From: Girardia tigrina
Taxonomy: Eukaryota
Direction: 5' to 3'
Assembly (NCBI GenBank): GCA_001938485.1
Contig: MQRK01212312.1
Location: 1-64,000 of the forward strand
DNA length: 64,000 nt
Below the pieces are notes generated by a model that was not told the DNA's origin, did not search any database, and was given only the letters and a program-made list of their open reading frames with translations. Position numbers and translations under genes: made by a program. This document shows, piece by piece, positions 1 through 56,466 of the stretch (positions are counted from its first letter, which is position 1; every line of letters starts with the position of its first letter).

Positions 1-642
1 GTTTGCGACCAGCGTTATTCGTTTTTCTTTTGTAGCCGTCGTTATGGTTTTGCTTTTTTGACATGCTTCACATCGTCCTATTACCTCCTTTATTATATCA
101 TTTTGGTTGGTCATTTCATGATTTTCTGCAATATATTTTGTCACTTTTTCCACACTCGCATGAGAAAGCAAAGTGTGTATCTACATAATCATTTCTTCTC
201 TGTTTGATTCTGGTATCCAAACTTTTCCTTTGTTTGTCTTTATTATACCATCTATAATCACAAGGTTTTTGTTTTTACCTGCCTTTATGTTCATCTTTAC
301 TGTTTCCATGACTCCTTCTTGATATTTATATATATCTGTGATATCTAATACGTTTATCCTTCGTGTCTTGACCTTCTGTGTCTTTGCTTCTTCGTGTGCC
401 ATTAAACATTGTGTGCATGTATCACACTTGTTCCGTGATAACATATCTGCGTTAGAATGGTTCACTCCTTTTCGGTATTCTAGTTGTATATCCAGACTTG
501 ATAAATAGTTTATCCACGTCTGAAATTGCGCTGTAATTGGTTTCTTTGTCTTCAGCATGAATGTAATTGCCTTGTGATGTGTCTGCAGAATGAATCTCTT
601 TCCGTACAAATAGTGGTTAAAATGTTGACAAAAGTAATACAT
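1..642 (-). mobile_element. Ty3/Gypsy pol fragment (RNase H end and start of integrase zinc-binding region)
   Basis: ORF 181..642 has F-x-L-x-T-(D>H)-H-K-A-I and YRKGVNHSNADMLSR (Gypsy RNase H C-terminus). Downstream, in a shifted frame, H..L.HA and C..C integrase-type residues follow. Runs off the window edge. Confidence 0.9.
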
Positions 643-3600
643 CTTATATTTTTACAAAAATGTTACCCTTAAATAATTTACATTTTCTTACGAAAATTTA
701 CAAATTTTTAATGTAACCAAATTTTAATATAACCAAATTCTTACGAAACTTAATCATAAAACTAATTAATTTAAATTTACAATAACCATTTTATTAAAAA
801 ATTATTTCTGAAAATATTAATCTGTTAATTAAAATTTATTTAGCTTATTCTATAACTTTTATTAAAATATGTTAATTGTTATTACTGTAAACATATTTTA
901 AATAAGTATTTATTATCATATTTTTACTTACATTGTAATTGTTAATTTATTTCTTTTAAATTTTCAAATTAAAAAAAATAATAAACTATTTTGGCGAAAC
1001 TTAAAACTAACCCCTCATAATTTTTATGAGAGGTTAATTTAAATTTGCAACTCACCAGAATAATTTATTATTTTTTTAATTTAAAAGGTAAAATATTTTA
1101 ATGTTAATATGCTTATTAAATATTTCAAAATTAAAAATGATATAATAAAACAACTATTAAAAAACAAATACGTATTTAAAAATAAAATATGTTTTTAATG
1201 TGTTTTTTAAATATTTTAAAAATTAAAAATGATGTATTAAAAGAAAATCATAAAAAAAATTAAATATCTATTTAAAAATAAAAAAAATCTTTTTAATGTA
1301 TCTATTAAATATCTTAAAATTAAAAATGATAAGAAAACCATTAAATATTAAATATTTATTTATAAATAAAAATATTTTACAGTCATATGAATTTATATAT
1401 TTTAATAGAAGTTATAAAACAATTTTAAATAAATTTTTAGTTATTATGTGAAAATTATTTAATAAATTTGCAAGATTTTAAAAATTGAATCGAAAAAATT
1501 TAATAGATTAATTTGTGGCGAGATAATTAAATTAACAGAAAAAATTGTTTAAATATGTGAATTGTTGTTATATTAATAAATTTTGGTGTTAAAAAATGAA
1601 TTCTGATATTGTTGTTCCACTTCTCACAATCGTTTTATTCAGAAAACGATTTTTCAAACGTTCACTAAAAAACTTATTTAAAGAAAATTGAATATAAAAA
1701 TTATTTAATATTTAGTTAATTAACTTTTATGTTCCAATAATTGATTTTCATTTTCGAATGATGGATACACAACCAACATTGAATAAATAAATTTCAATTC
1801 TGTTAAAAAGCGTTGTGATCTGTATTTGCATGCTGTGGAGGGAAATTTTATCGGTAAATGTGGGACTCTCATAAGTATTATAAAACATATAAGTAGAACG
1901 AAGTAAAAAGGAACAAGGCAGCTTTCTTGCTTCGGATTAACTACATATCCGTCTATGTGTCTGCCAGTTTCTTATAAGATTAATAAAAGTCGGTTAAAGA
2001 TGTCCATTATTCTGAAACTAAAAATTTCCAATCCCCTAAACCTTCATAGTCCCTCTATCACAATAACCCTATGATAAAAGGTTATCAAAATGTAATCATT
2101 AAAAATAAATCGTCAATTCGATTAAAAAATTTTAAAAATATTGAAATAAATAACAAGAAAAAATAATTTCTAACAAGAAAAAAAGAAACAATAAATTTTA
2201 ATTGTTCATAATTCTCCCAAATGAAATTTCCAAGATGATATTTCTGTTTTCCCGGGGACAAAACCGAACAAACGCAAAAAAAAACAAAATAGAGAAAACA
2301 AAACGGACAAAAGAAAAATAAAATTCATTTTGATTTTCAGAAATTTCAAAAACAAATTTTTTCCCTCTTTTTCTTTTTGAGTGATTTCTACACAATTTCT
2401 ATTGATTTTCCGAAGGAAAAATTGGCTGTTATTGATTAAATGAACGAGAGAGCTTGCATAGAACTACATCATGCTACATAAGAAATAAAGGCAGTGCTAG
2501 AGTGAATAAAGCACCAACCAGTTATTATTTAATCGTTTGCTTCATTAAGCCTATTCCTAACCTGCTGTGTCCCTACAATGATGAATACGAGCCGGCTGCA
2601 ATAGCATTAGCTGCGAGCAGAATTTGCTTATAGCAATTAGGCAAGACTATTGATGCTTGCCTATTTAATTCGTGTCAAAGTTAATAGTTCCTCTAATTGA
2701 CTGATATCCGCGGTTATTAATATTATCTCCACGCAGAGCTATTATCCTCGCGCTTAGCTCTGTCAGCAAAATAAATTGTCAATATCTTCATCTTATTGTT
2801 CTAATTTTCATCATTATTACACAGCTGCAATTGCAATAAATTATCAACATTTACATTAGAAAGCCTTTATATTTTCGTAATATCAATGTGTAAATTTACT
2901 GTCGTGATGAATCTCGGGTAATTGACGTCCCCTAATTCATTCAATCGTTTTCGTTTTTTTTTCTATTCTTCAATTATCTTTCTAAAACATTTATTGTTTT
3001 TTTTATTTAAGAAATTTTTTTTCGCTAATTTCACAAAAAAAATTAACAATAAAAAACATTTTTAATTTTTGGTTATTTTTGGAATCAAATAAATACATTA
3101 ATAAAATTAATTATCGTGAGATTTGGAAATAATTTGCTTTTTGAATTAATTGGATTTTTTTTAATTTAATTTTTAATAATAATAATAATAATAATATTAA
3201 TAAAATTAATAAATGGATTAAGAAAAAAATATAATTTTAAATAATTTTTCTTTGAATTTTTATGATTGGAAAAAGAAACAGGAAAATGAATATTCCATTC
3301 GAATTGAACGCTCGCGATAGAGGAATCGCTGAACAAAATCTCGCTCAAGGGTGTACAAAAGAAGAAAGAAAAAATTATCTAAAATTATTTTATTTATTAA
3401 TTAACAGTTTATTTTTTATTGAAAATAATCAAAACAATTTTTTTTGAAATAAATTTTTGAAGATTTTTTGTATTATATTTCTTTGGATGGACTTCTTTAG
3501 TTACCACCAATAAGGTTATAATTTAATTCTATAATCGTTTTTTTTCTTGAAAAAATTATTTTTTCTTCATTATCCTCTCTATAGAATATAATTATAATTT

Positions 3601-8760: not shown

Positions 8761-9935
8761 CTTATTTTTATTAAATGTATATATAACAAGTTTGATTAAA
8801 GAATGAAATTCAGATCTAAATGATTTTCAAAGAAAAAATCGGTTGTTTACCATTGATCGAAATCATCATTTCCAGAGTCTCTGAGAACATATTTTTATTA
8901 GAAATCTGAAATCATTTATTATTTACCAGCTGGAATGAAAAAAATCAAAAGTATTCATTTGATTAGAAACTTGACCATTATCCAATTATTCCATCCAACT
9001 TTCCAGACCTATAAACGTTTTAACCGATAAAAACAGAAAAAGAATGATGCGAATGACACTGACGATTGTTTGCACTGGAACACCTAGAGCTTCGTCATCT
9101 TTATGATGTTCAAAGAACAATATTTATCAAAGTGATGATATCAACAAAAATACATTTCATTAAATAAATTATGTTACTTACTTTGACATGTTTCTGAAAA
9201 CCAGAAGTGTGAATACTATTCACTGAATAGTTATACAATGTTTTCGGTTTATTCTATAAATAGTGTATTATTGTGATTAAATGACAAAAAGATCGTTGAA
9301 GAAAGATAAATGAAAAGTAAATAACCTTTCAGTTTGACTGAAATCTTGTTTGAGCAACGAAATTAGATGTATATTATTTTTGTTTAGTGTATTAAAGTCG
9401 ACATGTGTCCGTGAAGAATGTCATCTAGAATCATTGGCACAGTGAAATGACATCGGTCATTCCTGTAAATATACCCTCGGAAAAATAGAAAATAAAGCTT
9501 TAAATTTCAGTTGTTATAAATGGTTTAGATGATGAATTAATCGATGAAGATCAGTCTTGGCCTAGAGGATAAGAGTCTACAGAATGCATGAACATGGAGA
9601 TAACAGATTCTTAATCAAGACAATGATGAAAGGTTTGCCGGCTTCGATAGATCAATAAACTCCCTGAAAGACTTTCAAAAAATTGATTTAATAAAAGCTA
9701 TTTGAAACAGTTTTTCAGTAGAAAACCTTTTTGGATATTTGTGAAAATATCATATGGGCTGTCTAATAAGTTCCCGGAATTGTTTAAAAAAATGTTTAAA
9801 AAAATTGTTTAAAGTATACAAAATTTATTTGAATATTGTTTATAAACATTTTATCTAAACTTTTCGCGGTATAAATAACAAGTTTATCTCAGCTGTGAAA
9901 ATCACTATGCTACAAACTTACTAATTAAATACATA

Positions 9936-11200
9936 TTGGGTTGACCAAAAAGTCATTGCGTTTTTTACTAAAATATTTATTATCAAAAAATGACATGGAT
10001 GCACAAATATTTTTACACGATATATATATCCATTATTTTCAATCACTTTCTTCCACCTTTCCGGTAGCTTCATTATTCCTGATTCATAAAAACCTTTGCC
10101 TTTGTCAGCAAAAAAGATGTCTAGGAACGATTTGATGTCATCATCACTGGCGAATGTTTTTTCTGTTTAAGGAATTCTGCAGTGATCTAAATAAGTGAAA
10201 ATCCGATGGGGTCAAGTCTGGAGAATACGGTGGGTGCGGCAAAACCTCCCAACCCAGTGATAATAGTTTCTGGTGAGTGGTCAAACTTGTATGCGGTCTT
10301 GCGTTATCATGCTGAATTACAACTCCTTTTCGATTTGCCCATTCAGGACGTTCCTGTTGAATTGAATGAGCCAATTTCTCCAGCTAACCACAATATCTGT
10401 CTGAATTGATGGTTTCATTCCTCGGAACGAATTCAAAAAGCACAATTCCTTTAAAATCCCATCAGACGAAAAACATAACCTTTTTTGGTGAATTACTGCT
10501 TTTGGGATCGTTTTGGCAAGCTCACCACGTTTTGTCCATGATCGTCGGTGTTCCACATTGTTGTTAACAATCCACTTTTCGTCACCCGTAATGAAGCGCT
10601 TCAAAAATGGATCACTTTGTTCTCAATTCAAAAGGGAATCGCAAATGTCTATACGTTTCACCAAATGAAATTCTTTCAGTTCATGTGGTAAACACATATC
10701 GAGTTTACTGGCAAATCCAAGTTTCTTTAAATGACTTCCAACACTTGATTTTGATATTTCCAGAGTCTCTGCAACTTCTCTTGTCGTCATATGTGGATTA
10801 GATTTGATCAGTGCTGTTATTTTGTCGCTATCAACTTCAACTGGTCGACCGGAGCGTGGTGCATGTTTCAGATGAAATTTTTCAGAACGAAATTTAGAAA
10901 ACCAGTATTGACACTGTCGAAGTTTTAAGTAGTCACTACCATATACAAAACATATTTTCTTATGAGCTTGCACAGCGGTTTTCCCTTTGCGAAAATAATG
11001 CAACAAAACATGACGAATATGCTCATTTTGATTTTCCATTTCGAATTGACGGTAAAGTAATAAATTAAAACAAAATCAATTAATATTTTGTATAAACAGT
11101 CTGAAAATTGAGGTTTCAGAATATATAATTGAATTTAAATTTTACCACATCGTTTTATATTTTCAAGCTTTTTATTTTCAATGACTTTTTGGCCAACCAA
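9936..11200 (-). mobile_element. Full-length but pseudogenised mariner (DD34D) transposon
   Basis: TIRs TTGGGTTGACCAAAAAGTCATTG / CAATGACTTTTTGGCCAACCAA with TA on both sides, ~1.27 kb. The broken transposase (11039 down to ~10020) retains an HTH region, PRSGRP, (W>C)LPHEL, TGDEKW, HDNARPH and YSPDLTPSDFHLF. Confidence 0.95.
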
Positions 11201-13386
11201 TAATAATTTATATTTTAATCTCATTCTTTTTAACAATATTTAAGCCAATCTTTCATTCGTTTGGTCACCCCATATTTAATACATTCCCATATTTTATCAA
11301 TAATTTGCTTTTTTCGGAAATGTAATTATACTTTTCTAATAAAAATAATTAAAAATTAAGGAACGATAAAATATTTTAAGGAAAAGTGACTTTTGATGTA
11401 ACTAAATAAAAACGAAAATGATGATCGTTGCAATTTCCCGACATCTTTCTTGATAACAGGTCTCGTTCAAGGAATGTGATCTCGAAGCTGACAATGAGTT
11501 TGTTGGTGATAAAACTTACTCCTCACAAAAGTCTTTCATAGAAAGATTACAAAATAACTATGACGGTGTTGGAGTTGTTTCGACAGAATAGGAATTTTTG
11601 AATTTAATAAGAAATTAGGATGCAAAGAAATTTAACTAATTACTACAGAATATCCTGAAAATTAAATTATTACTTAAAATCAATATATTTATAAAACTAT
11701 TAAAAAAAAGAAGTCCAGGGTTTATCGTTAACAAGAAAAGTTCCTAAGAAGTTCAAAGATTTTGATAAAAATTAAATTAAAAAACAACAATTAATTATTA
11801 AAAAATTAATGTTCTTTAAATAATGTCAATTTTTTTGAAAATTGAAAAAAAAGTAATTTTGGAAATAAAAATTTATAATCGATTTTCGTTTTATTATAAC
11901 TGAAGGCATTGTGGTAATTTTTATTCTGTTTAAGTGATTGTTGTTCGGGCTCATGAGTTTTAATTCTGGTTCTACGATTGATGAGCCCAGCGATTCTAAC
12001 AGAAGGTACTATTAAAATCTCGGTATTATTATTGAACATATAATAATATATTATCGATACATATTTATACAGTTAATACAATATTACTCAAATTATCTCA
12101 TTAATTAGAGTTATTCGTTTACTCTAATTTTGTGGAAAAAAATATTATTATTAATACAAATAAAACAGTAATCATAAGTTCACAATATTGTTCTTCCTAA
12201 TTGATACTATACGGAGGATGTTTCTTGCTTACCACAGATAATTATCACGCAGCGTCTTTATATCCACCCTAATTAAAGATATCGGAATTTTTTAGGAATA
12301 AAATAATAAACAGTTGAGTTTTCAATCACAACAACTTATGTTATTATATCCTAATTAATTGTGCAACACAAATTAATCATAAAAGGTAATGTTATTAGCC
12401 GATTAGACAAGTAATCTGTTTTAGGCTATATTTTACTGAACATAATCGCTATTTTGCTCGAACTAATAAAGCAGCTTATTTGAGCGCTTCGGGCGACTTC
12501 CTTTATTGTAAGTAACAATTAAACCGTGATTTTAATTAGTTAATTAGTCTTGACTGAGTTCATTGCAATCTCTAGAAGAATAAGAATGATGTTTTCACCA
12601 TCTCTTCTGTCAGAGTCGTTCTGCTTGATTACCTCACAGAATCATCAGTTCCATCACATGAATCTTGTTATCGGGCATGCTAAAATTTTAATGAATTAAT
12701 TAAGTATTTTTTCAAAACAACTATTAAGCAGTAAGAGTAATATATGTATCATTATTTATTTATTTATATTTTTTTATTTAATTCGTCAAAATAAATTCCA
12801 TTTAGATTCGTTGATAAAACCTTACGTAAAAATTTAATTTCAAAAAAATATGTATAAAAATTAAAAATTAATATTATGTAAAATGTATAATTTTTATATT
12901 AATTAAGATAAAAATATTTTTTTTAAAAAAAAATTAATTTTGAAAGAAATAATTAATGAATTTATTTTCGATTTAATCAGTTTGAAATTTGTTTTTTTAT
13001 AAATTATAATTATTGAATTTCTTTATTGATTATCTCGTCATCAAATTTGAAGTTTGAAGTATTATTAAAAATAATAAAAAATAATTATCAATATCAAAAC
13101 CGAGGGCGGTGTGACAGGATATAAAGAAATATAAATTATTTTGTGAATATGTTTTCTTTAAATATAATATAATATCATAGAACGTATTTTGATGAGTTTC
13201 CTTAGGTCATCATCATCAATAATAATGCTAAAAAAATCAATAGTCATAATAAATCAAAAAATAAAATGTTAAAAGTAAAAGATAAAAACTAAGACACATG
13301 TTATTAAAATTTTGTATATAATAAGTAGTACGAAGCATTAAACCTTTTACTAAACTGCAACGGAAAGAAGTAAAAACGAATATATA

Positions 13387-39799: not shown

Positions 39800-40475
39800 C
39801 TTTTTATATCCTTTTTCTAAATTAATTTCGGAAATGTTTTTTTGTTGGTGCAATCGATTTTTAGACATTGAATAATTAATTAAAATATGGTTTATATATT
39901 AAAATTTGGACAAATTATAATAATGTAATTTTTGAAAATGATTTAATGATTGTGTAAATAAGCGTCACTACAATGATATTAAAGGAACACTGGTTAGAAG
40001 AGTTCTTTTCGCAAGATTTGATATTGCATGACTTTAGGAAGTTATGGAAAAAAGAATAAAGAATCATCTTATTTATTTTCCCCGATCGTTATTAATGTCT
40101 TTGAAAAGAAGTACATGAGCTCAAAAATGGGATCTAATTCAGATCGTAATTAAGTGACTGGAAGTGTATTAAAGAGGGATTCGGAATGTTGAAATTTTGA
40201 AGAACCTTTCGAGTATGTTCTTTCAAGTATGTTTTAAAGCATTTTTACTTCACTTTTTAAGGTGAAACATTTAAAAATAAGTTAAGAAATACTTTGATAT
40301 TGAGAAAGGATTGTATAAGTATACACCCTTGTGACAAGTCTTGTGCCCTAGTTTCCAAACTATGAAGGCGATTGATTTTACACCAAAATTTAATGTCCAT
40401 TGTTGTGTTCATTCAAAATTACTCCTTAAAATAAGACTAAATGTTTTCACAAAGAGTCAAAAATTATAAAATTTA

Positions 40476-40757
<282 letters not shown>

Positions 40758-41488: not shown

Positions 41489-43270
41489 AGAGGAATCGCG
41501 ACGAAACTGTGTACACTGATTGCAGAAGTCTCACTTATAATCGCTGACGATCAAACTAAATGCTGATAGGTCGCGTTTAATAATTATTTATATTCACTTC
41601 GCAACGATTATTACAAATGGGTAAATAGTATTAATAATAATAGTAATATCTTCCTTCTCATTATCTCTTTTTATCTCTTTAATAGAGAGAATGACAAGCT
41701 CGTTCTTAGGAAGCAGGTGATGTTGAAGCTGATTCAGACTATTTCTTAGTTGTTCTATTGTTCTAATTGAAAATAGCCTGATTTCATATCAACGTGAGAA
41801 TCTCTTAAGTACGCTGACATGCCAGCATCGAGCTAACAGGCATCACAGACACACAGCCGCATTTATCCCCGCGACCCCCCCTCCCCGGCCACACACTCGC
41901 TCCTGCAGACAGTCTTCTGCAAATGTTGTGTATAATTGCTGCTTATTAATTCGCTGGAGGGCGGCAATAAAACCAAATTAATTTGTGAATTCGATCTGCT
42001 AGAGTTCCTTCGCCTCATCTAATATTTGATATAGGAGGCTTAATGAGATATAAGCATTTTTGCTCGTTTGTTGTAAATCTTTGTCCCAATAAATTTATAT
42101 ATTGGAGCTGGAAAAAAAAATTTTTAACCACTAAACAATTAACCGCATTGAAATATTAAACACGTTTCAGGACTCTGCCATTTATTAAATTGAGTAGGCT
42201 AATTATTTGAGATTATGTGGAGATAAATTAATTTTACCACGCAACTAAACTGCTGTAAGCGAGCGCAGCTGACTTCTCGATGTGATTCCTGTCGTCAACA
42301 ATCGCTAATGATTCCATAGTCTTACTGACTGCAAATATGAGAAAATCATTTATCTAGAATTACATTATAGGGAGAATGCACGATGCATTCGCTATCAGAA
42401 TTAATGTGGCTGAGAATAATTGAGGAATGATAATGGGTTTTAAATTACTAGAAATATACGATTGTCGATGCTCCGGTTGCATGCTCCATCATGTGAGTGT
42501 TAAACCTGTCGTCATTCTTCGCTAATGGGTCCGCTTTGTTCAGATATGTTCCTAGCTAATTGCTACAGTCTGTGGATGCTCAATAATTTTCAGTAACCAA
42601 TTCAATCCAATTACATAAAATAATCACTTTATTTTACCGATTATCAAAGGGAAAAAATAATGTATCTAAATGTTTGTCCATTATGGTTTTTTTAATATTA
42701 ATAGTGTTATTTAATTAGTATTCAAAACCGCTTTATCCAATGCTGTTTATTGAATCAATGAATATCTCGTGAAATGTTTCCCCGTCTTCTTTTTGTTCCG
42801 TCCTCGCAAGGATGCGATTCCTCATTATTCTGTCGGTACTCCCAATTTCGGGATCTATCGCCACTCGCCAGATTCATTCAACCAGAAGAGAATGAGTATT
42901 AATTATCCGCGTTGCGGAATTGAGTCACTTTTGGGGAATGTTTTCGATAAGTCATTAAATTTGAATATAAATACGATTAAAATACTCTCACGATACAGAA
43001 GGAAAAATATTTTTTTCGTCTAAAATCAGAAATTATATTTTAAAAATATAATGTTAAATGAATATAAATTATTATCTCTATGAAATCTGATCTTTGGGAT
43101 CAGTTTCTGACGAGCAGGTTCAACTGGACGTCTTATAATCTTATCCTGGCCATTGGGAGTACAAAAGAAACGAGCAACCTTTTTAAAAAATATTATTCAA
43201 TAAAATGAAACGCTTTAATACATTTTTTAGGAATAATAATAAATAAAAAATGCATAGAATTTTTCAGTCA

Positions 43271-44347
43271 TTAAGGGGAAAATGAGCATTCTGCCTACAA
43301 CCCCCCTGAGGGTAACCCGTTGCCATGGCAACATTTGCGGTTACCATAGCAACCGTCACGATCACCCTAGTAACGGTTACGGCTCACTTGGTAACGGTAA
43401 CCAAGGTCTTAGTTACCATAGCAACGGTAACCAAGGGGTGTTTTTCATTAGCAACGGATACAGTGATTCAAGGTTGTTGTAAAAATGGTAACAGTTACCG
43501 AATCCATATCAACAGTGACCCTTTCCTTAGCAACCGTAGAAAAAAGTGCTAATCGATCGCTGCATAGTGCATAGATGTTTTAACCGATACTTTAAAAGTG
43601 CTAATCGATAGTGCACATTGTGCCGCACATTTTTAATTACACATGTGCAAAAGTGCAAAAATCAATACATATAATTTTTAAAAACTAGTGTCAAAAATCG
43701 ATATCATGTGTTTGATGCTCATATGTTTGATTCTCTAACTAAATGTGCAATTAGAATTTTCATATATTGATTACTTTTGCCTATAATTAACATAATGTAC
43801 AAATTTACACAAAATGCACATCGATTTTAGGCCTAGGCAGAGGTACAAGAAAGCTGAATATCAAAAATGTGCTCATACACTTTAATAGTAATTCATATAC
43901 GTACATTCAGATTCCACATCTACATTTTCGAAAAGGTGCTGAAATATCCATTTTTTCGAACATTTCTGAAATTCTCAAAAAAGTGCTTAAAATCGGTGCA
44001 TAGTGCTTTTTTCGTATATACCTGAAACCCATATGTAATATGTATGTTGCTTGTCATCAAACAATACCTCATGAATCGTTTAATGTAGCCCAGCCTAGAC
44101 ATCAACAATCACAAGTACCATGGTTACCGTAACCAAGATACATAATTTTTTATATTATATGTAAAATCTACATTTATAAAACTCCTATCCTACTTAAAAC
44201 GTGCATAGACATGTAAAACGTGCCTAACATGTACATGATCTGCTAAAGTAGATGAGCCTAGACATCAAATATCATATCACCTTGGTTACCGTAACCATGT
44301 TACTATCTTCATGCATTTGTTATGCATCCATCATGTCAACGAGTTGC
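43271..44347 (+). repeat. Left TIR (~1.08 kb)
   Basis: Reverse complement of 50412-51340, e.g. GGGGAAAATG(A/G)GCATT and CACCTTGGTTACCGTAACCATGTTACTATCTTCATGCATTTG. Confidence 0.92.
43319..43425. promoter_or_regulatory. Array of RFX X-box-like palindromes in left TIR
   Basis: GTTGCCATGGCAAC (43319), GTTACCATAGCAAC (43340 and 43412), and degenerate units at 43361 and 43382. Confidence 0.6.
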
Positions 44348-44545
44348 ATTCATTATGTTAACGAAATTTGAATTTAAAATTTGAATTTTAATCAATATTT
44401 TAAATTTCTAATGAGACACCTGTCATTATTTCAAAATCCTGTTAAGAAAATGGTGAGTTTTTTTTTCAGTTCCGTTAAAAAATATTTTTTTTAAAATTCA
44501 AATTTATCCCAATACTACAAATACAATTTCTCTTCACAAGAGGCA

Positions 44546-47500
44546 ATGTACAAAACTAGTTTTGAAGAATTTTACAATGACTATAAACAACATGTAGTTC
44601 CTTCCACCAAATCGAAAAAGCATATATTCAAAGAAAATGTCGAAGATGTTTCAAGAGAAAATTCCTATGAAAATTCAACAATGTTCATTATACAGATGCT
44701 GCATGGCAAATGTTCACAATCCACAAATTTATCATGATACAATGCAGTGTTACTATGGATATGTGTTCAATAGATGTGAGTATTACATTTATCCAGTATG
44801 TCAAAATGCAAGTAGTGGTGACTATCATCAATTTTATGATAGCCACAAGAACCATTTGTGGGACTTTTCAATAAAGTCCAGGAAGACTATCTTCCAATTA
44901 TCAACGTACCAAGTTCTCGCATCACTAAATTTTTCGAATGTTCCAATTGAGAAGAATGTGTTAAATGTCCAAATTGAGAAGAATCTAACAAATACGATAA
45001 AAGTTCCCTTAAAACGTGTAAATGCTACAAATGTTCCAATGGAGATACATGTTTCAAATGCTGCCAAGGCTGCAAATATTCCATCAAAACGTGCAAATGA
45101 TACAAATATCATAAATGTTCCATAAAAAAGTTCAAGACAGGACCAATTCATAAAGCTTCATTGAATAAGAAGGTACGTTAATATGTTATCAAGGCTCCCC
45201 AGGCTAACCTAGACAGCAAGGTTTCAAGTCTCCACGAGTTTCTGGAATATTCCAAGAAGGAAACCATGGAGATTCTACAAGACAACATGTTTGATTTCAA
45301 GGCTATCAAAGTCAACCTTAAATTGGAGGCAACATTCACCAATGTTGATGATGATGTGTCAAATAGAGCCTTCAAGACCAAAAATAGACCAATGTTAGAA
45401 TCCGATGATATTTTGGAGTGGCTCAATGAAGAATATGCCAAGATAATGAAGGAAGCTGATGAGAGCAAAGAAAAGAAGAGTGGATGGACTCTTGCATACG
45501 TTAACCAATTGATAATTCATGTTCATAAATACTCCACAATGAGAGGCAGGTCCTACATACCGCTTCCTGAATGGATAGCTAATAAAAAGGCATGCGTCAA
45601 TGTTTACAATAATGACAGCATGTGCTTCAAGTATGCTTTGCTGTCAAAATTTGTTGAGGATCAGAACCATGCATCACTAGTATGGATATACAACAATCTG
45701 CAGCATCCATATAACTTCAACTGCATAAAATTCTCACCGAACCTGGAAGAAGTCACTAAATTTTGAAGCCACAACAATGTTTCAATCAATAACTTTGGTT
45801 TGGAAAATGAAACATTTTATCCCTTACTTGTATGTAAGGAAAAAATAGGAGATCATCTGGATTTGCTATTGCCAGATGATGGAGAAAAGAGGCATTTTAT
45901 ATGGATCAAAAACTTTGAGCGCCTTCTAAGATCCCAAATATCGAAACATCATGGAAGTATCGAGATTTGTAAACGATTCTTTACACATTTTAATGGAGAT
46001 GATGCGGCAATTAAGTTGGAAGAGCACAATGCTTATTACAATAACAATCATTGCATCAGAGTGGAATTATCAAAGGAAGATTATATCGAATTCAAAGAAT
46101 ATGAAAAGATGCAGAAAGTGCCCATTATCATATATTGTGACTTTGAAGCCATTCTAAGCCCAGTTAAAACATGCAATCCGGATCCATAACTTAGCAGTAC
46201 GACATCATACCAGTATCATGAGCTATCATCATATTGTATGTATGCATTTGGTATTGACAGTGAGGCATTCCTATACAGAGGGCCAGATACAGCAGAATAT
46301 TTTATGAAACGTATGGATAGTTATGCCCACAGAATTGAAGACATGTTGCAGCAACACAAGTTCAACATGATAATTACATGGCAAGAAAAGTGTGGATGGA
46401 GAAAGGCAACACAATGCTACTTGTGTGAAAAACCATTCACAAATGACAATCACAAAGTCAAAGACCATTGTCATTTTACTGGAAAATATCGAGGAGCAGC
46501 ATGTAATAACTGCAATTTGCGATATAAAACATCTACAAATGTTCCTGTTGTATTCCACAATCTTAGTGGATATAACTCCCATTTCATAATAAGAGAACTG
46601 GAAAAATCAGTGGGTATATATACGTTATTCTAAATAGTAAGGAAAAATACATCACATTTACCAAGCATGTGGGTAGAATTAAGCTACGATTCATCGATAG
46701 TTTCCGATTCATATCATCATCGCTGGACAGCCTTGTCAAGAATATTCCTGCAGCTGAACTGAAGGAAACTAAAAAGTTCTTCCCAAATTCATTTGACTTA
46801 GTCAAAAGGAAAGGAGTATTTCCTTATAACTATATAAGATCATGGAGATCGCTGGATGAAACAATATTGCCAGCAAAAGAGGCATTTTACAACAAGCTTA
46901 ATGACACCGACATTAGTGATACTGATGCACAAAATATCTGGCAAGCTTTCAAATGCCAAACACTTGGGAGATATAGTGATGTATACCTCCAAACAGATGT
47001 GCTGCTTCTTACGGATGTTTTTGAGAGCTTTCGGGATGTGACACTTAAGAGCCACAAGTTGGATCCAACTCATTTCTTTACATCACCAAGTATGAGTTGG
47101 GCAGCAATGCTGAAATATACAGGCATAAGGATTCAAATCCTGAAAGATTATGACATGATCCTCATGCTGGAACGGTATGGTGAGGCAAACAATAATACAT
47201 GAAAAATTATGATCCATCCAAGGCATCCTCCTACATAACATTCTTGGATGCTAATAATTTATATGGATGGGCAATGAGTGCTCCATTACCATGACAATTT
47301 CAAATGGGTGGATCAACCTGAAGACATCACGATAGAAAAACTGAACCCTAATGGAGATGTGGGCTACATATTGGATGTGGTAGTTGAATATCCAAAATCC
47401 ATCCATACAAGACATGAGTAGCTGCCTTTTCTGCCTGAGAGCAAATGTGCTCCTAAAGGAAAACATAAGAAGCTGCTCTGTCACTTAGAAAATAAACAAA

Positions 47501-48434
47501 AATATGTAGCCCATTACATCAATGTCCAACAAGCTATAAGGAAATGTCTCATAATCACAAAGATCCATTGGGTTCTTCAGTTTAGTTATTAAAAATGGCT
47601 TAAGCCATATATTGACTTTAACACCAATCTGATGACCAATGCCAAAAACGACTTTGAAAAGGATCAGTTCAAACTGTACAATAACAGCGTTTTTGGCAAA
47701 ATGATGGAGAATATCCGCAACAGAATCAACATGGAACTGGTGTGTGATTTGAAGCGAGCAAAGAAGCTCATTGCCAAATCAAACTTCCACAGTAGTATTA
47801 TATACACTGAAAATCTTGTGAGTATACATATGCTGAAGACATCCCTGGAGTTTGATAAGCCGATATGTGTGGGGATGTCAATCCTTGATCTATCCAAGGC
47901 CTTGATGTACGACTTCCACTATGACATCATGGTCCTTAAATTCCGGGATTTACAGCTAATGTATATGGATACTGATAGCTTTGTCTATCAGATTCATACA
48001 GAAGATCTGTTTGCGGAGTTTTTCAAATGGTTCAACATATGGATATCTCAGACTATTCAAAGGACCATCCAAATTATTAAACATCAAATAAAAAGGTCCT
48101 TGGAAAGTTTAAGGATGAAGTCAATTGTCAAATCATCTCTAGATTCCTGGCACTACGGTCTAAGATGTATGTCATTGATGTGAATGGAAAGATCAAAAAG
48201 ATGGCAAAGGTAGTTCAACGGGCAATGTTAGCAAACCAAATCGGATTCCATAATTATATGAGAGTGCTGCGGGAACAAATCAATATAATTTCTGAAATGC
48301 GAAGGATCCAATCAAGAGGACATCAAGTCTCCACAGTAATGATGCGGAAGAAAATCCTAGACTGGTTCGACGATAAACGACATATTTTGACAGATGGAAT
48401 AAGTATATTACCTCACGGATATTATTTCTTGTGA
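44546..48434 (+). pseudogene. Protein-primed family B DNA polymerase (Polinton/adintovirus type), fragmented by stops and frameshifts
   Basis: ExoI IYCDFEA; EndoVII-like CYLC..DHCHFTGKYRGAACNNCN; ExoII FHNLSGYNSH; FIDSFRF; RKGVFPY; ExoIII YLQTDVLLL; motif A LDANNLYGWAM; motif B KLYNNSVFGK; motif C YMDTDS; GKFKDE. The 44546-45125 part may be its N-terminus or a separate ORF. Confidence 0.93.
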
Positions 48435-48769
48435 ATGATCCACTTGTATATATTGTACATATGTAAATAAATAAATGTTCTTTATAATCTTGTTACGTTT
48501 TAATTCAATTAAAGGTTAATCAAATAATCGTTTCAGAAAGTAATATGTAAAATATTTATTAACGTGATGATAATAATTCAAGTTAATCTATACTATACCA
48601 AAATGCAACAATTCTCCATTCATTTCTAAATTCAGCTTTACTATCTCTAATTCATGTTTTATTTGTGTTTCTATATCCATTTTAACAAATGTATTAATCT
48701 ATTTTATATAAAATCAAGACTAAATTATTACAAGATTTATTAACACAACAATACAACTTGCATCAACAA

Positions 48770-49498
48770 TTAAATACAACGAATTTCTGACAATTTCCAT
48801 ATTTGATTATTTTCTCCATTTCTTTCTTTTCTACCTTGTATGCATATTTTGATAAATGCCATAGTATAATTAGACAAGTCCATTGTTGGTTTTTCATGAC
48901 CCATAAAATCTCTGAATTTTAACCCATCATCTGATCGAAAATATTGTTCTCGATGTTCACTCAGCTTTCCATCTGGTCTTGTTCCAACTTCTTGTAGGTA
49001 AATATTCAAAAGATCATAAATGCGATCACTAATGTCCTTTACATGGTAGCTAAATTTGCTCTTTCTAACATATACCGGATCCCTCAATTTAATTGATTTC
49101 GGATATTTCAACAAGTTAATTTGATATCATCTATATGCTGTTGAAGTAGAAACCCATGGTGAGGAAGATTTTTGTGGAGCATATCTTTGTTTTGGTTGAA
49201 AATAACTAACTTGTTTAGTCTGATTAACCAGGGCTTCAACAATTGGCACTTGAATATCCTTGGCTGTTTGAGTGTCTAGGCTAGCCCGGCTAGCCAGGGC
49301 TACTATTGGTTGTCCAACTAGCCTAAGCAGCCTGATTAGTCTAGGCCGCCCTACTGGTCTGACTGGTTCGACTAGATTAGGTTGATCAGCATTTATCTCT
49401 TCAGTTAATTGGTTAGGTCTATTAATTGTCTCATCATCAATCTTCTTTTCTTCAGTTACCTGGTTAAGTTCATTAAAGGTTTTAAACTTCAACTTCAT
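48770..49498 (-). pseudogene. Unknown ~240-aa ORF with AT-hook-like motif (one internal stop)
   Basis: ORFs 49127..49498 and 48770..49114 are in the same frame, separated by a single TGA. Contains RPVGRPR. No fold recognised. Confidence 0.55.
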
Positions 49499-49760
49499 TT
49501 TAGCAGGAGCAACTTGATTTGTCTAACGGATTTTGAAATAATGACAAAATGTCTTGATGTTGCGATATCTTATAATGTTTATTATATTTATTTTATTTGA
49601 TACATTAAAACAAAACATATCATAATAATATTATTTATATATTACTTTTAATATAATAAAACAAACACTTGTTATTAATTTGTTTTAATGAATCACTATT
49701 AATAAATAGACACAAGGCGGGAATTCGAATTATGATGGATACAGTGACATTCATTTTTAA

Positions 49761-50381
49761 CAAATACTGCGTAATATTAATTATAAAGGATTTACTCAAG
49801 ATTGTCTGAAAGACCTCCATTTTGGTACTAACCCGTACCAATGTGTTTTATACTTGCTAGAGTATACCATTATACTCTTCCGAAACGGAAAATGTCGAAT
49901 AACGGGCTGTAAACTACCAATTGATCCATCCACTTTACCATTCAATCTCACCAATGTCAGTATACAATTTATTACAGTGACTCGTGATTATGGTGATCCC
50001 ATAAATATCAATGCTTTGAAAATGACTACTCCGAATCATTATGAACCTGAAACGTTTCCTTCTATGAGATTAACTTGTTTGAATCCAATATGTATAAATG
50101 TTTCTCGTTCTGGGAAAATTGTAATCACCGGTTTGAGAGATTTAAACTATAAGGATTTTGTTACACGTGTTTTGACTATATTTTGTTTACAATGTTTATT
50201 ACGTAAGTTGTGTTTCAAATATATTGTTGTATCTTCTTCATTCAAAATCTTGTGTATATTAAACATTGTACATATATGTTACAGCTGTACATGCTATTTA
50301 AATAAATGTTTTGTTGAAAATAGTCATGTTATACATGTATTCATTCAAAACCTTGTAAACAACAACTTTTATTATAAATAA
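49761..50381 (+). pseudogene. Divergent TATA-box-binding protein (TBP)-like ORF
   Basis: Two TBP-repeat signatures: TIILFRNGKCRITG, and HYEPETFPSMRL...INVSRSGKIVITG (cf. LIFxSGKxVxTG and YEPELFP). The frame is open from 49761; the likely ATG at 49732/49735 needs a frameshift. Similarity ends near 50180. Confidence 0.82.
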
Positions 50382-50411
50382 TAATGATATATACTATAAA
50401 ATGGTTACTAA

Positions 50412-51340
50412 GCAATATGTTGACATGATGGATGCATAGCAAATGCATGAAGATAGTAACATGGTTACGGTAACCAAGGTGTTTTGATAGTTGATGTCTA
50501 GGCTCATCTACTTTAGCAGATCATATACATGTTAGGTATAATGTCTATGCACGTTTTAAGTACAATAGGAGTTTGATAAATGTAGATTTTACATATAATA
50601 TAAAAAATTATGTATCTTGGTTACGGTAACCGTCGTACTTGTGATTGATGTGAAATCTGAATATACGTATATGGGTTACTATTAAAGTGTATGAGCACAT
50701 TTTTGATATTTTTCTTTTTTGTACCTCTGCTTAGGCCTAAAATCGATGTACATTTTGTGTAAATTTGCACATTATGTTAATTATAGGCAAAAGTAATCAA
50801 TATATGCAAATTCTAATTACACATTTAGTAGAGAATCAAAATATGCATCAAACACATAATATTGATTTTTGACACTAGTACTTTTAAAAAATGATATGTA
50901 TTAATTTTTGCACTTTTGCACATGTGCAACTTAAAAAGCAATATGCTAGCACCTTAAAGATGTGCGACACAACGTGCACTATCGATTAGCACTTTTAAAG
51001 TGTCGATTAGAGCATCTATGCACTGTGCAGCAGTCGATTAGCACTTTTTTCTACGGTTGCTAAGGAAAGGGTCACTGTTTTTATGGATATGGTAACCGTT
51101 ACCATTTTTACAACAGCTTTGAATCACTGTAACCGTTGCAAATGAAAAACGTCCATTCGTTACCGTTGCTATGGTAACTAAGACTTTGATTACTGTTACC
51201 AAGTGTGCCGTAACCGTTACTAGGGTTTTCGCGACCGTTGCTAAGGTGATCTGAACCGTTACCATGGTAATCGGAACAGTTGCCATGGCAGCGGGCTACC
51301 CCTGGGGCGGTTGTGGACACAATGCCCATTTTCCCCATAC
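50412..51340 (-). repeat. Right TIR (~0.93 kb)
   Basis: Inverted copy of the left TIR. It lacks ~43921-44103 and has one extra 21-bp unit plus a ~22-bp insertion. Confidence 0.92.
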
Positions 51341-51948
51341 TTCAGTCAATTAATGTTTAATCGAAACTTTGATCTTACACAATTTACAAATGTTTTCATA
51401 GGAAAATTTGTTTGAAACAATTTTATTTAACATTATTTTGTCTTATGATAAAAAGCGAATAAAAATAAACACTATGTTCCCTCTGTGTACCGAAACACAA
51501 TGCACTGCATGAAGCCTCGTCTGATCCAAACAGTCGTAGAGCTCGTCCCGTCTGTTGTATGAAGTCATTGTACTGTAGTGTTCGGATCGAAGGCCTCAAC
51601 TCATTGGGGATTGTTAGGACTGAGTCAGCGAATTTAACCAACAAGGATCATTTTCGAATGGTATATGCGGTCGATTGCGAGGAAACCACTAGAATCTCTT
51701 TGTCATTCGTTAGGGCAGCAACGGTTTGAGCCGTTCGTTACAACTTGTCATGATTTTTCTTCAAATTCTCGTACATATTTACAATAATCCTTATTTCAAC
51801 AGATAAACACATCAGCATTAGAAATAATAAGAAAAAAGATGAACACTCTGACGTATTTTTCGTTTTTCAAAAACGTGTTTTTGTACATGCGTTCAAAGAA
51901 CTACATTTTATATTGTTATTTTTTATTTTTTTCTTTGTTTTGCATGTA

Positions 51949-54900
51949 CAGTGCGTTCAAAAAGTCTGTTCGCACCCATAAAAATCATCACTTATACAAA
52001 TGTCCTAAGTAAAAAGACGATGAAGTGGAAGTAAATATTATATTTACAAATAAAAATGTTATTTTTAATATTTTGTGTGGTATCCTTTCATCTTGATGAT
52101 TGAAGACACTCTTCGCGGCATCGAATCGACAAGTCGGCGATATAAAGAACTTAATATGTTGTACCATAACTTTTGTATTTCTATCCACATTTTTTCTGAA
52201 TTCAAAGTATCCATATTATTTATTTTTCTCTTTATAATACCCAACAAATTCTCAATTGGATTTACATCTGGTGAGTTGGCAGGCCAATCAAGAATATTTA
52301 TCTTCTTTGTTTTCAAAAAAGACACTGTTGATGCTGATCAATGGCAAGGCGCATTGTCTTGCTGAAATATAAAATTTAGAAGAGGGAATACCAAGCATTG
52401 CCCTGTAATGTCTATGTTATTGACAATTAGGTCTTGATAGTTCTTCGAATTTAAATTCCCGTTTATCCGTTTTAAGATACCAACACCAAATCTGGAGAAA
52501 GATCTCCATACATGAACTTGGGCACCGTGTTGGAGGACCTTCTTAGTACAAATGTCACTAAGCCTTTCATTGTCAAACCTTTTAACGATTTCGCTACGAG
52601 TGTGGCTATACGTGCGGAACATAGATTCATCGCTAAAAACTACATTCGACCACTTATCAATGTCCCAATTTTGTTTATCCCGAGTCCATTCAACTCTTCT
52701 TTTTCGTTGCTTTCCATTCAATAAAGGCTTGCAAACAGCATAATGACTTTTTTAAGCCGTACTTTATCAAAATTCTATTCACTATACTTCGTGATACATT
52801 TTTTTTCAGTGAGCAAAAGTGCCCGGTTTTTACAAAAATAAATTCGCCGCATACATCAACCCAAAGGAATCATCAGCACCGGCCCTGGATTCCACAGGGG
52901 TTCTTTCGCTAATGGCCTCCTCCCGCACCCTTCAATTGGGTGATCGTTTCCGCCGGACCCGACACTTCGCTTATTGCACTAGTAACTCATCATTGGAGGT
53001 GGGTTCCTCCTCCCATGATGAGTTATTTACATCTTCTGATGAATCTCCAATCCTAGATCTAAAAAGTCTTGGGAGTAATTCATCATCGGATGAGTCATCT
53101 TGAGTTTGATCCTCAATCAGAAAAGTTCCCCCATGTTGCACTCTTTCTCTATGACTGAAAGATTGTATGAGTGCATCCAGGGCGGCTGGATCAAAGTCTT
53201 CGACGTCCTCAGGGACAATATGTGCGTAATCGGCTTCTTCCATCATTAACATGCTGTCTTGAGGTCCGTCGTAGCATTCCACATTTATTTTGCTGACTCT
53301 TTGTATCCCGCTTGGGACTATTCCATCCCATTGATAAGACCATTGTGCGGCTGAATACTTGATGTTGGATATTGAGCATCCAATCGCAATTTTTCTTATC
53401 ACCTTCTGCGGGATCTTCAGCGTTGTTAAGATATCCGTGCTCCTCTTTGGCCACGTCCCAAGGCATCCTACTTGGAGAGTAAACACTGTCACTGTTGTTT
53501 CGGGCATTGCCGCCTTACAAGCATTGGCAAGAATCTCATAATGGTCGAGATTCTTTTCATTGCTGTGTTTGATGTTTTTCACTGTGTCAAATGGGCACTT
53601 AACATCAATTAGGTATAGGATCTTTGATCGTGGGACGAATACCTGTAAGTCGACTCGGTCCTGTGATGGGGCATATTGGCACTCAGTATTTATATCTACC
53701 TTGCAATCCAAATACTGAGTGATTTGCTCTCCAATACACTACAGGACCGAGTTATGCCTATAGTTTCTGAAATCCCCACTATAATTACAGTCGGTCAGCA
53801 CGTGAGCCAATGTTTCTTTATCGTGAGGGCATCGGCGACAATGACCTCCATTCTTGGTGATTCCTGGTCGGAAGTTGACTGGCACCGTGTATGTAAATGC
53901 TTTGTGGTAAAAATACCACTCAGCATAGTTGAGCTCCCCCCCATAGGCAGCGCTGTGAAAGCTAATCGTCGATTGCAGGCTTCTTGAAAATCGACCAGCA
54001 CTGTTTTGGACATTCCATTTGTGCGTCCAAGATTTTTTCACTAGTCTTCTTAGTGTCTTGGACACACTGGATTTTAGGAGGGGGGTGAGGAGTATGTTTT
54101 CATGCGTGTCGTCCCGGAAAGTTTCATATTCACCATTGGGTAGTCTCCTCTTCCACACCAGTGATTGGTGAAGGTGTAGACAAATGCCTCTCTCATTCTG
54201 CACCAGACTAGCTGAGATCTGGTGCAGTTCTTTGATTTTGTGGATGGCAAATTTGATCTNNNNNNNNNNNNNNNNNNNNNNNNNNNNNNNNNNNNNNNNN
54301 NNNNNNNNNNNNNNNNNNNNNNNNNNNNNNNNNNNNNNNNNNNNNNNNNNNNNNNTCGCTCCACGTTGAAGGGAGAAGACTGCAGCATCCATCGTTGTCG
54401 CATCACTACACGCAATCATTTGGAAACTATGGGCCAGTGATTGTATCAGGTACTCATCAAGTAGCGATTTGATACCGACTCCCCCATTTTCCCTTGGCGT
54501 GTAGAGATACGCATTCGATGCGTTTTTCTGCAGTCCCAACACTTTGTGGTAAAAATACCACTCAGCATAGTTGAGCTCCCCTCCATAGGCAGCGCTGTGA
54601 AAGCTAATCGTCGATTGCAGGCTTCTTGAAAATCGACCAGCACTGTTTTGGACATTCCATTTGTGCGTCCAAGATTTTTTCACTAGTCTTCTTAGTCTTC
54701 ATCCAGTGTTCCATATGGAATGTAGAAGATCCTGAATGAGAAAACAAGTTTGGAATGTAGATAGACCATGTAAGCGTGCAATTTCTGCCAGGGAAACAGT
54801 ATAGATTCTGTAATCTTAATTGTTTCNNNNNNNNNNNNNNNNNNNNNNNNTACTGGTGCTAACTTAATATTTTCTGAAAAGTGACCTCCCAAATATACAA

Positions 54901-56045
54901 CGAATTCACCCTCCGTAATTTCGGGGATAGCGTTTCCATAGATTTGGATCCTATTGTTTGGATTATGTGGGATAGCTATTCGTGAACATTTGGAAGGTCT
55001 GAATTTAATACCTAAAATGTTGGTAATGTCGACCGCCTTATTGACCATTTTTTGCATATGATCCTGATTATCAGCCAGCAACACAAGGTCATCAGCATAG
55101 GCCAAGCAGCTCACACGGTGATTGGCTATCAACATACCGCCATAAGACTGTTGGTCCAATTCCAATAGGACAGGGTTTATAGCAATGTTGAATAGCAGCA
55201 TTGATAGTGGGCATCCTTGAGTGACTCCCACCAAAATCGGAATTTGTTTGGTCACCGTGTTGTCGCATTTGTATGCCGATGAGCAGTCCCTGTATAGCTG
55301 TCGTATCAGGTCACACGAGTCTGCTCCTACACCCATTCTTCCTAGCAATTTAAGGATGATTTCCACCGACACTGAGCCAAATGCGTCAGCATTGTCTAGC
55401 ATTGTCGCGTGGAATTCGGCTCCTTTTAATTGATAGTAATATTTATCTAGGATGACCCGGATGACAAAGTTGTGTTCAGCACAGCCATCATGAGGACCTA
55501 GACTTTTCTGGAGTGGGTGTAAGAGGTCATTTTCCACAATCCACTTGTTTAGTTGGTCTCTTAAAAGTATAGCCAGCTGCATTGAAAGCTCCTGTTATTT
55601 TATTTATCGACATGCGCCTATTTTTCAAGCATATACGGCGAATAATTCTTTCAGAATGTTTTGGTAATTTTGAAGGTCGTCCACTACGTTTTTTATCTTC
55701 ATATGTACCTAATGTCTTGAACTTATGTACATTTTTTTGAATGCCACGCTTTGAAACAATAATACCATGTCTAACCTTCATAATTTCTTGTATCCGACCC
55801 GTTGAATGACCCTCGTTCATTAATTCTACAATAATAATCCTAACCCTTATATGTATATTTCGAGTTGTCATTGAATCTAAAAGATAAACATTTAATTAAT
55901 TCATCTTAAAATAAGATGTTCTTGATATTTCAATTTTAAATTTACTAAAATTATTTAAATTAAAGCATTTAAACAAATTAAAAAAATTAATAAATAGCAT
56001 AAATCAAAATTTCAATGGGTGCGAACAGACTTTTGAAACGCACTG
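51949..56045 (-). mobile_element. Tc1 (DD34E-type) transposon interrupted by a non-LTR retrotransposon
   Basis: 31-bp TIRs CAGTGCGTT..AAAGTCTGTTCGCACCCAT with TA TSD. The transposase N-terminus (55871-55581, RSGRPSKL) resumes at ~52819 with VFSDES, FQQDNAPCH and WPANSPDVNPIENL. Confidence 0.95.
52823..55580 (-). mobile_element. 5'-truncated non-LTR retrotransposon with restriction-like endonuclease (R2 group, NeSL/R4-like)
   Basis: RT motifs LDNADAFGSV, GVTQGCPLS, LAYADDLV, YLG and PRENGGVGI; zinc knuckle CRRC..ETLAHVLTDC; RHNSV; RLE motif RVDL...LIDVKCP. Confidence 0.92.
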
Positions 56046-56466
56046 TAACTAAAATTTGATTTATTAAAGTGTATCTTTATCTCTAAAAAATCAGAGCACC
56101 ACACCATCTACATGACTTTTCAAGTTTTCTAAAACCTTTTTAATCTTTTGAGTACAAAAATATAGATTTATTGATGTTTCGGAATTCCAAAATTAAAATC
56201 TTAATTTATAATTGTGTATTCTTATTTATATTTCAATGTTCTTCTTTCTTATCCTGAAGACAGTCTTTCGATTCAGATTCAAATCGTTAATTGTTATTCG
56301 AAATCTTTAAAGACTCACTTCGTTTTTATTTTATCTAAGAATGGTTAGAAACTTAAGAAATTTTATTTATAACATAATTTATTCTTATTTCAATTCACCA
56401 GTGTAATTCACAATATTCAAAGAAACACAGTTTTTAATTTAACACTTAATTTATATTTCCCTGTGC

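Follow-up and report, generated by a model that had tools for sequence, protein, structure and literature searches.

The window, by which we mean the whole 64,000-nucleotide stretch of Girardia tigrina DNA that was analysed, holds a Polinton/Maverick element of 8,072 bp (43270-51341), bounded by terminal inverted repeats (TIRs) of ~1.1 kb and a 6-bp target site duplication (TSD), TCAGTC. Its parts are listed below.

43264-43269, no strand: left TSD, 6 bp, TCAGTC
43270-44400, + strand: left TIR, ~1.1 kb, with an AGTAG-type end (decayed here)
44637-45125, + strand: Cys/His-rich frame upstream of the polymerase, no Pfam match
45182-48434, + strand: protein-primed DNA polymerase B (pPolB) with an endonuclease-VII domain, carrying stops and frameshifts
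48770-49498, - strand: predicted single-stranded-DNA-binding protein (SSB; T7 gp2.5/Enc34-like OB fold), internal stop near 49127
49764-50200, + strand: 145-aa TBP-like gene, broken (start codon lost, Ser at the last Phe, late frameshift)
50412-51341, - strand: right TIR
51342-51347, no strand: right TSD, 6 bp, TCAGTC

The first-pass annotation had assigned the TBP-like gene to a mobile element, which is borne out by the TIRs, the TSD and the broken pPolB. Long TIRs, AG/AGT-type ends and a 6-bp TSD are given as hallmarks of Polinton/Maverick elements in PMC8097293, and all of these, together with pPolB, are found in the window element or its copies, the AGTAG ends being seen in other copies. 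With the adintovirus-type Polintons described in PMC8097293 and PMC8502044 the lineage as a whole further shares an rve integrase, an A32-like ATPase, adenain, and major and minor capsid genes. Ends of the TTAA/TWA cut-and-paste type were also considered and were dropped, as other copies have AGTAG ends and 6-bp TSDs. The pPolB in the window is recognised by Pfam through both Endonuclease_7 (E 1e-8) and DNA_pol_B_2 (E 4e-7), and the Cys/His-rich frame ahead of it is probably either its N-terminal part or a separate small gene. The minus-strand frame is homologous to the gene adjoining TBP in relatives (E 7e-7), and was read as an SSB since the model of a relative's protein (pLDDT 91.7) folds like the T7 gp2.5 and Enc34 SSBs (Z 8.1-8.5, rmsd 2.6-2.8, 101-105 residues). 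The same fold resembles many uncharacterised giant-virus proteins, and in some relatives the first exon of the SSB gene appears to be spliced. No integrase, ATPase, protease or capsid gene was found on the window element and, considering that these are absent from an element that bears pPolB, we regard it as one half of a Polinton (half A of family 1) and not as a complete one.

The TBP-like gene had been described as intronless, with a start near 49732 and a shortened first repeat. A single intronless plus-strand frame, extending from stop to stop over 49761-50381, holds all the peptides quoted for it and matches the Pfam TBP profile PF00352 with an E-value of 1.6e-10 (41.1 bits, with a curated cut-off of 22.9; 57.7 bits for a copy with an open frame), as well as PDB TBP sequences down to E 1.3e-10. 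The proposed start has to be moved: the ATG at 49733 opens a short non-TBP frame, and the reading frame of other copies, which encodes 145 aa, begins at the position of 49764. The window copy itself has lost this start codon, and its frame shifts near 50170. The serine reported at the repeat-2 phenylalanine is real. It is nevertheless decay of the window copy and no family trait, since this last intercalating residue is Ser in 1 of 70 non-redundant copies (the window copy) and Phe in 66 of them, and the family keeps three of the four intercalating phenylalanines, the first one being replaced. A structure model of an open-frame copy, built from a 12-sequence alignment (pLDDT 92), retrieved TBP as all of its top Foldseek matches (E 2e-9, ~23% identity), and structural comparison (VIA) gave a Z of 13.8 and an rmsd of 2.4 with 145 of 145 residues aligned. 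The two-repeat saddle is present in this model, and the first repeat is indeed shortened: it keeps its strands and is devoid of the long second helix. In the genome (1.43 Gb, 255,254 contigs), 152 matches were obtained in the 150 scored of 1,547 candidates, so that the gene is carried by at least 150 scored copies of the element. A search of RNA runs gave only small word shares (0.06-0.20 in 9 of 12 rows), which are no evidence of expression.

Among the 151 best-scoring homologues, several residues are nearly or fully invariant: R45 (150), M47 (151), R102 (148), C110 (151), N112 (151) and F114 (151), to which F39, F98 and S69 can be added. The acidic stirrup of repeat 2, which in TBP contacts TFIIB, is kept as well (E94 in 147 and E96 in 150 of the same 151). 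Six of the fixed positions (R45, M47, S69, R102, C110 and N112) are non-canonical, and the family therefore departs from canonical cellular TBP, with its four phenylalanines and canonical DNA-face residues. While it shares with cellular TBP the saddle fold, the YEPExFP stirrup and three intercalating phenylalanines, it is only ~23% identical to it and has lost the first Phe and the repeat-1 helices. R102, C110 and N112 align to I152, V161 and L163 of the Arabidopsis protein, which correspond to yeast I194, V203 and L205 (42-residue offset, same table). These are the three altered-specificity positions of the yeast mutant TBPm3 (PMC1636458), at which the Polinton protein has invariant Arg, Cys and Asn. 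One member has His and Trp at the positions of R45 and M47. The TBP-like proteins of large DNA viruses (Heterosigma akashiwo virus, asfa-like B263R, bacilliform virus) also have the TBP fold, but are 10-20% identical and mostly longer. Most of these viruses encode their own RNA polymerase; no RNA polymerase gene was seen in the TBP-bearing Polintons.

A profile search yielded at least 343 proteins homologous to this family. The full library gave 60 clusters at E<=1e-30 and, once weaker matches are counted, which include cellular TBPs, 710 at 1e-10. Another Polinton gene or the TIR accompanies the TBP in 23 of 36 metagenome loci, and 12 of the remaining 13 are no longer than 3 kb. Loci L084 and L086 each encode, on one molecule, SSB, TBP, ATPase, core, integrase, penton, capsid, protease and pPolB, and L308, a Polinton found through its ATPase alone, also encodes a TBP; in these three one-piece relatives the integrase, ATPase, protease and capsid genes thus accompany pPolB and TBP. 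The annotation had proposed to test whether homologues in other genomes neighbour pPolB genes; they were found within Polintons that also encode a polymerase, an integrase and capsid proteins. The TBP gene changes its place, lying either ahead of the ATPase or close to the genes for the protease and the exonuclease-like protein, but stays within the lineage. IMG/VR, scanned with queries for the TBP, the ATPase (two scans) and the capsid, gave no relative. In a Polinton lineage at a greater distance (L309, ATPase 39% identical) there is a near-canonical, full-length TBP-like gene of 185 aa (11568-12122, minus strand), and the TATA boxes look canonical; two types of TBP may exist among Polintons, or TBP may have been captured on two occasions. 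The Polinton contigs L308, L309 and L311 were found within bacterial MAG records, and are probably misbinned eukaryotic or viral DNA.

Other features of the relatives deserve mention. The adenain protease has no in-frame ATG in L084 (9150-9600), L086 (8440-9130) and L136 (7850-8360), where its start seemingly is a tiny spliced exon, and starts normally in L099, L095 and L308. L084 also contains a ubiquitin-conjugating E2 gene (222-719, minus strand, Pfam E 1.7e-12), two penton-like genes and, at 9591-10055, a conserved gene of ~155 aa with no Pfam match, which we take to be exonuclease-like from its acidic motif. A homologue of the latter closes the right end of the half-B elements described below, and in relatives this gene often adjoins TBP.

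In the G. tigrina genome, two multicopy element types with the same TIR have complementary gene content. Half A, to which the window element belongs, carries pPolB, SSB and TBP between its TIRs; half B, of ~9 kb, carries the ATPase, core, integrase, penton, core2, capsid, protease and exonuclease-like genes, and has neither pPolB, SSB nor TBP. The TSDs of half B match at 5 of 6 positions in two elements and at 6 of 6 in one shortened copy, and the genome contains 796 ATPase and 706 capsid candidates for this half. The pPolB block (44421-48472 in the window) is flipped in about half of the half-A copies (15 vs 14 loci, some counted twice), each orientation having its own junction common to several copies. 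A second family in the same genome (family 2), whose TBP is 78% identical at the nucleotide level, is one-piece, and its elements are bounded by the same TIR family as halves A and B.

The annotation had held the gene to be too divergent for a recent retrocopy of the host TBP, and had proposed looking at selection among copies. Across 70 TBP copies, private changes comprise 49 synonymous and 207 nonsynonymous ones (N/S 1.09, i.e. neutral), while changes common to at least three copies comprise 46 and 55 (N/S 0.31; p 1e-6, and the same without CpG sites). The shared-change ratio follows the same pattern for the SSB (0.21) and pPolB (0.05-0.12). For half B the signal is weaker in the ATPase (0.33, p 0.017) and not significant in the MCP (22 copies, p 0.45), and for the family-2 TBP (8 copies) the shared-variant test was uninformative. 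Neutral private changes next to constrained shared ones indicate that the TBP gene worked while the element was spreading, and that the copies decayed after insertion. In a tree of 39 rows, the 34 family rows are separated with a support of 100/100 from the other five, of which three are cellular TBPs and two further TBP-like proteins; since the tree held no animal TBP or TRF2, it separates the family from the cellular TBPs included and does not place its origin. A host TBP retrocopy decaying neutrally within a transposon would fit the broken window copy and the neutral private changes, but is ruled out for practical purposes by the purifying selection on shared changes, the 343 homologues, the separate branch, the ~23% identity to cellular TBPs and the invariant family residues. 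None of the results that the annotation had named as refuting its reading was obtained, the comparison with cellular TBPs covering the three in the tree.

The suggestion that the protein drives promoters of the element finds support at the sequence level in a motif, TATAAAC, lying upstream of structural genes. Of 37 structural-gene starts, 28 have it in the 110 nt ahead of them, as opposed to 1 of 22 TBP and 0 of 7 SSB starts (Fisher p 6e-8, a value which overstates independence because the elements are related and the genes behind the 37 starts homologous); this count excludes ten loci that were near-duplicates or truncated, and the background is 0.055 per search window. Of the 28 motifs, 16 sit 32-42 nt before the ATG, a distance because of which we read TATAAAC as a putative core promoter. 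Integrase starts have the exact motif in 1 of 5 cases and ATAAAC in 4 of 5, and the top-ranked heptamer is ATAAACA (31 of the 37 structural-gene starts). Upstream of the TBP starts, the canonical TATAWAW is found in 11 of 22 cases. In one half-B element all 11 copies of TATAAAC lie on the sense strand, at least one of them ahead of every gene; the window half has a single one. Where the motif falls within an upstream coding region, the less common codons for Ile and Asn are kept there; in L308 the motif sits in a different frame. In that relative TATAAAC precedes 7 of 12 ORFs, including a probable SSB gene. Controls consisted of two lineages represented by partial elements. Another Polinton family of the same host has the motif ahead of 0 of 31 ORFs (four partial stretches, which may still carry a TBP), and in the lineage of two contigs, one of which encodes the near-canonical 185-aa TBP, it stands ahead of 2 of 20, with canonical-looking boxes instead. 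The same genome contains an unrelated Polinton family (L312-L315) with many open capsid frames, 1,335 candidates and T-rich/TTAAAAA leaders, as well as a third ATPase lineage outside families 1 and 2 (L185 and L187), of which the L185 leader is without TATAAAC.

Judging from gene content, conserved residues and motif distribution, the TBP family is likely a late-gene promoter factor of this Polinton (adintovirus-type) lineage, predicted to bind TATAAAC and to recruit TFIIB and RNA polymerase II. Since half of its promoters bear a canonical TATA box, the TBP gene would be transcribed early by host TBP, and pPolB and the SSB would first replicate the element. The element TBP would then bind TATAAAC, recruit TFIIB via the conserved stirrup together with host RNA polymerase II, and so switch on the ATPase, core, penton, capsid and protease genes after replication. 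Points against this reading are the single exact motif among 5 integrase starts, the motif ahead of the probable SSB gene of L308, the His and Trp of one member at the positions of R45 and M47, and the geometry: R102, C110 and N112 presumably face the upstream half of the box, whereas the distinctive C of TATAAAC lies in its downstream half, and the link to this C rests on R45, M47 and the lost first Phe. In a complex with TFIIB and TATAAACA, R45 and M47 would be expected near the C:G pair. TAF1, Mot1 and Brf1 are host partners bound at the repeat-1 helices of TBP, and the loss of these helices could free the element TBP from the partners binding there.

A comparable arrangement exists in beta- and gamma-herpesviruses, as in KSHV, where a virus-coded TBP-like factor, ORF24, acts with a modified TATA box (TATTWAA) ~30 bp upstream of late structural genes (PMC6541308). 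By analogy the element TBP, likewise associated with a modified box upstream of structural genes, likely works as ORF24 does on TATTWAA, without the viral complex and from outside the ORF24 family. ORF24 is one of six proteins of a viral complex and contacts Pol II directly (PMC6541308), whereas the Polinton protein is a bare 145-aa saddle with a TFIIB stirrup, and its motif is TATAAAC.

The main alternative is that the motif is read by a host factor, either the host TBP, for which it would be a weak TATA variant, or a forkhead protein, and that the element TBP is a decoy for TFIIB or a damper of host transcription. ATAAACA is a forkhead-type site as well, and its rank among the heptamers speaks for such a reader, while the near-invariant stirrup and the loss of the first Phe and of the repeat-1 helices would suit a decoy. 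A decoy, on the other hand, has no need of invariant non-canonical residues on its DNA face; a G following the C, seen at several motif sites, breaks the forkhead consensus; and the other Polinton family of the same host, in which the motif is not enriched (0 of 31 ORFs), is exposed to the same host factors. That wild-type TBP can be placed on a box with C at -25 is indicated by the title of PDB entry 1qn3, which speaks for a reading by host TBP. On balance we find this alternative rather unlikely. Quite improbable is a role for the element TBP in replication, packaging or genome condensation through binding to the motif or the TIRs. It would agree with the linkage of TBP to the SSB gene, with its travelling with pPolB in half A, and with the few motifs in the left arm of half B, 416-855 nt from the ATPase, but it is at odds with the strand specificity of the motif, its clustering 32-42 nt before start codons and the retention of the acidic stirrup.

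A late-gene promoter factor of the type proposed above would give a direct and testable answer to the question of how Polintons, which do not encode an RNA polymerase, control the timing of capsid gene expression. The factor would, in addition, be a naturally occurring counterpart of TBPm3, its specificity altered at the three positions of that mutant, and so a candidate for use as an orthogonal promoter tool. Minimal in size, widespread and matched by a motif of seven bases, it would parallel the herpesvirus TBP mimic by a separate route.

The separation of halves A and B raises a second question. No locus joining the two halves of family 1 was found among 53 SSB, 70 TBP and 48 ATPase loci (assembly of 255,254 contigs). 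Upstream of the ATPase, 40 loci show the TIR in 27 cases and nothing recognised in 11, the sequence being too short in the other 2. The family-1 TBP has the TIR downstream of it at 33 of 40 and at 16 of 30 loci, and 3' of the exonuclease-like gene the TIR follows in 15 of the 21 loci with the gene, pPolB doing so in none. In L295 a TIR separates pPolB from capsid. By contrast with known Polintons, family 1 in this genome was hence seen only as two complementary halves. Half B has the motifs but no TBP and half A has no integrase, which means that B would need TBP, and A the integrase, in trans. As in segmented viruses, complementary gene sets lie on two molecules with common termini. Going by the architecture alone, we rate a true two-segment system about as likely as a pair of derivatives that depend on a helper.

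The reading to which we give an even chance is that A and B arose independently by deletion and that each is mobilised by a helper of full length, either family 2 or an unseen full family-1 element. A one-piece family does exist in the same genome: TBP, SSB and ATPase are linked in L242, L243, L256 and others, the exonuclease-like gene lies beside pPolB in L265, and the family-2 SSB adjoins a half-B gene in 21 of 37 loci, many of them retrieved by a query that included the ATPase. The TIRs of A, B and family 2 are intermixed at ~86%, so that any of them could be a substrate; because the TIR tree leaves the three unseparated, it cannot tell a partner from a helper. Mobile Polintons lacking polB are reported in 10.1101/2025.02.07.637071, other one-off deletions also carry TSDs, and the weak or non-significant selection on the half-B ATPase and MCP would be in accordance with a helper. 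Against it stand the exactly complementary gene content, the lack of a joined family-1 locus and the distance of both halves from family 2 (dS 0.74 for TBP, 0.98 for SSB and 0.57 for ATPase). Judged by sequence divergence, the halves look similar in age and older than family 2 (within-group dN 0.049-0.064 vs 0.022-0.049). Pure passengers, moreover, would not need the purifying selection seen on shared changes in all half-A genes.

The other reading, which we hold as possible with somewhat less than an even chance, is a Polinton split into a two-segment endogenous DNA virus, with A providing replication and a private TBP, B the integrase and the virion, all genes of B being keyed to this TBP through TATAAAC, and each half depending on the other. 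The family Bidnaviridae offers a parallel, in that its genome is segmented, one segment bears pPolB and the terminal repeats are shared, although its members have ssDNA, a different capsid and no integrase. Both Polinton halves, on the contrary, integrate with 6-bp TSDs and the double-jelly-roll module is kept. If true, this would be a double-jelly-roll virus whose genome is segmented and in which a TBP and its promoters form an orthogonal pair of natural origin, and the complementary halves suggest a route from a one-piece to a segmented DNA virus within a host genome.

Polintons and viral TBP mimics are known already; beyond known Polintons, the lineage has the 145-aa TBP, the T7-like SSB and the common TATAAAC motif. 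No description of this TBP family, of the motif or of complementary Polinton halves was found in full-text searches of the literature, and as far as our search goes they are undescribed; Repbase or figures may name the gene. The label "TBP" does appear among MELD viruses in the legend of Fig. 5 of PMC8502044, with no analysis of TBP found in that legend or in section 3.4, and a supplement file without TBP. Term look-ups in PMC11071308, PMC10748475, PMC11131425, PMC8097293 and 10.1101/2022.07.12.499685 returned no mention of TBP or TATA.

Around the element, the window contains further mobile sequences and a homeobox exon; this exon and the animal type of the transposons point to an animal host. 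A Tc1-like transposon with 49-bp TIRs (51947-56047) is split by a non-LTR retrotransposon, which is recognised by its RT (E 2.4e-20) and has assembly gaps, a mariner fragment (Mos1-type HTH) lies at 10623-11039 and an LTR-retrotransposon RNase H fragment at 181-642, both on the minus strand. An NK-type homeobox exon (40473-40757, minus strand, Pfam E 1.9e-13) is located ~2.5 kb from the left end of the element.
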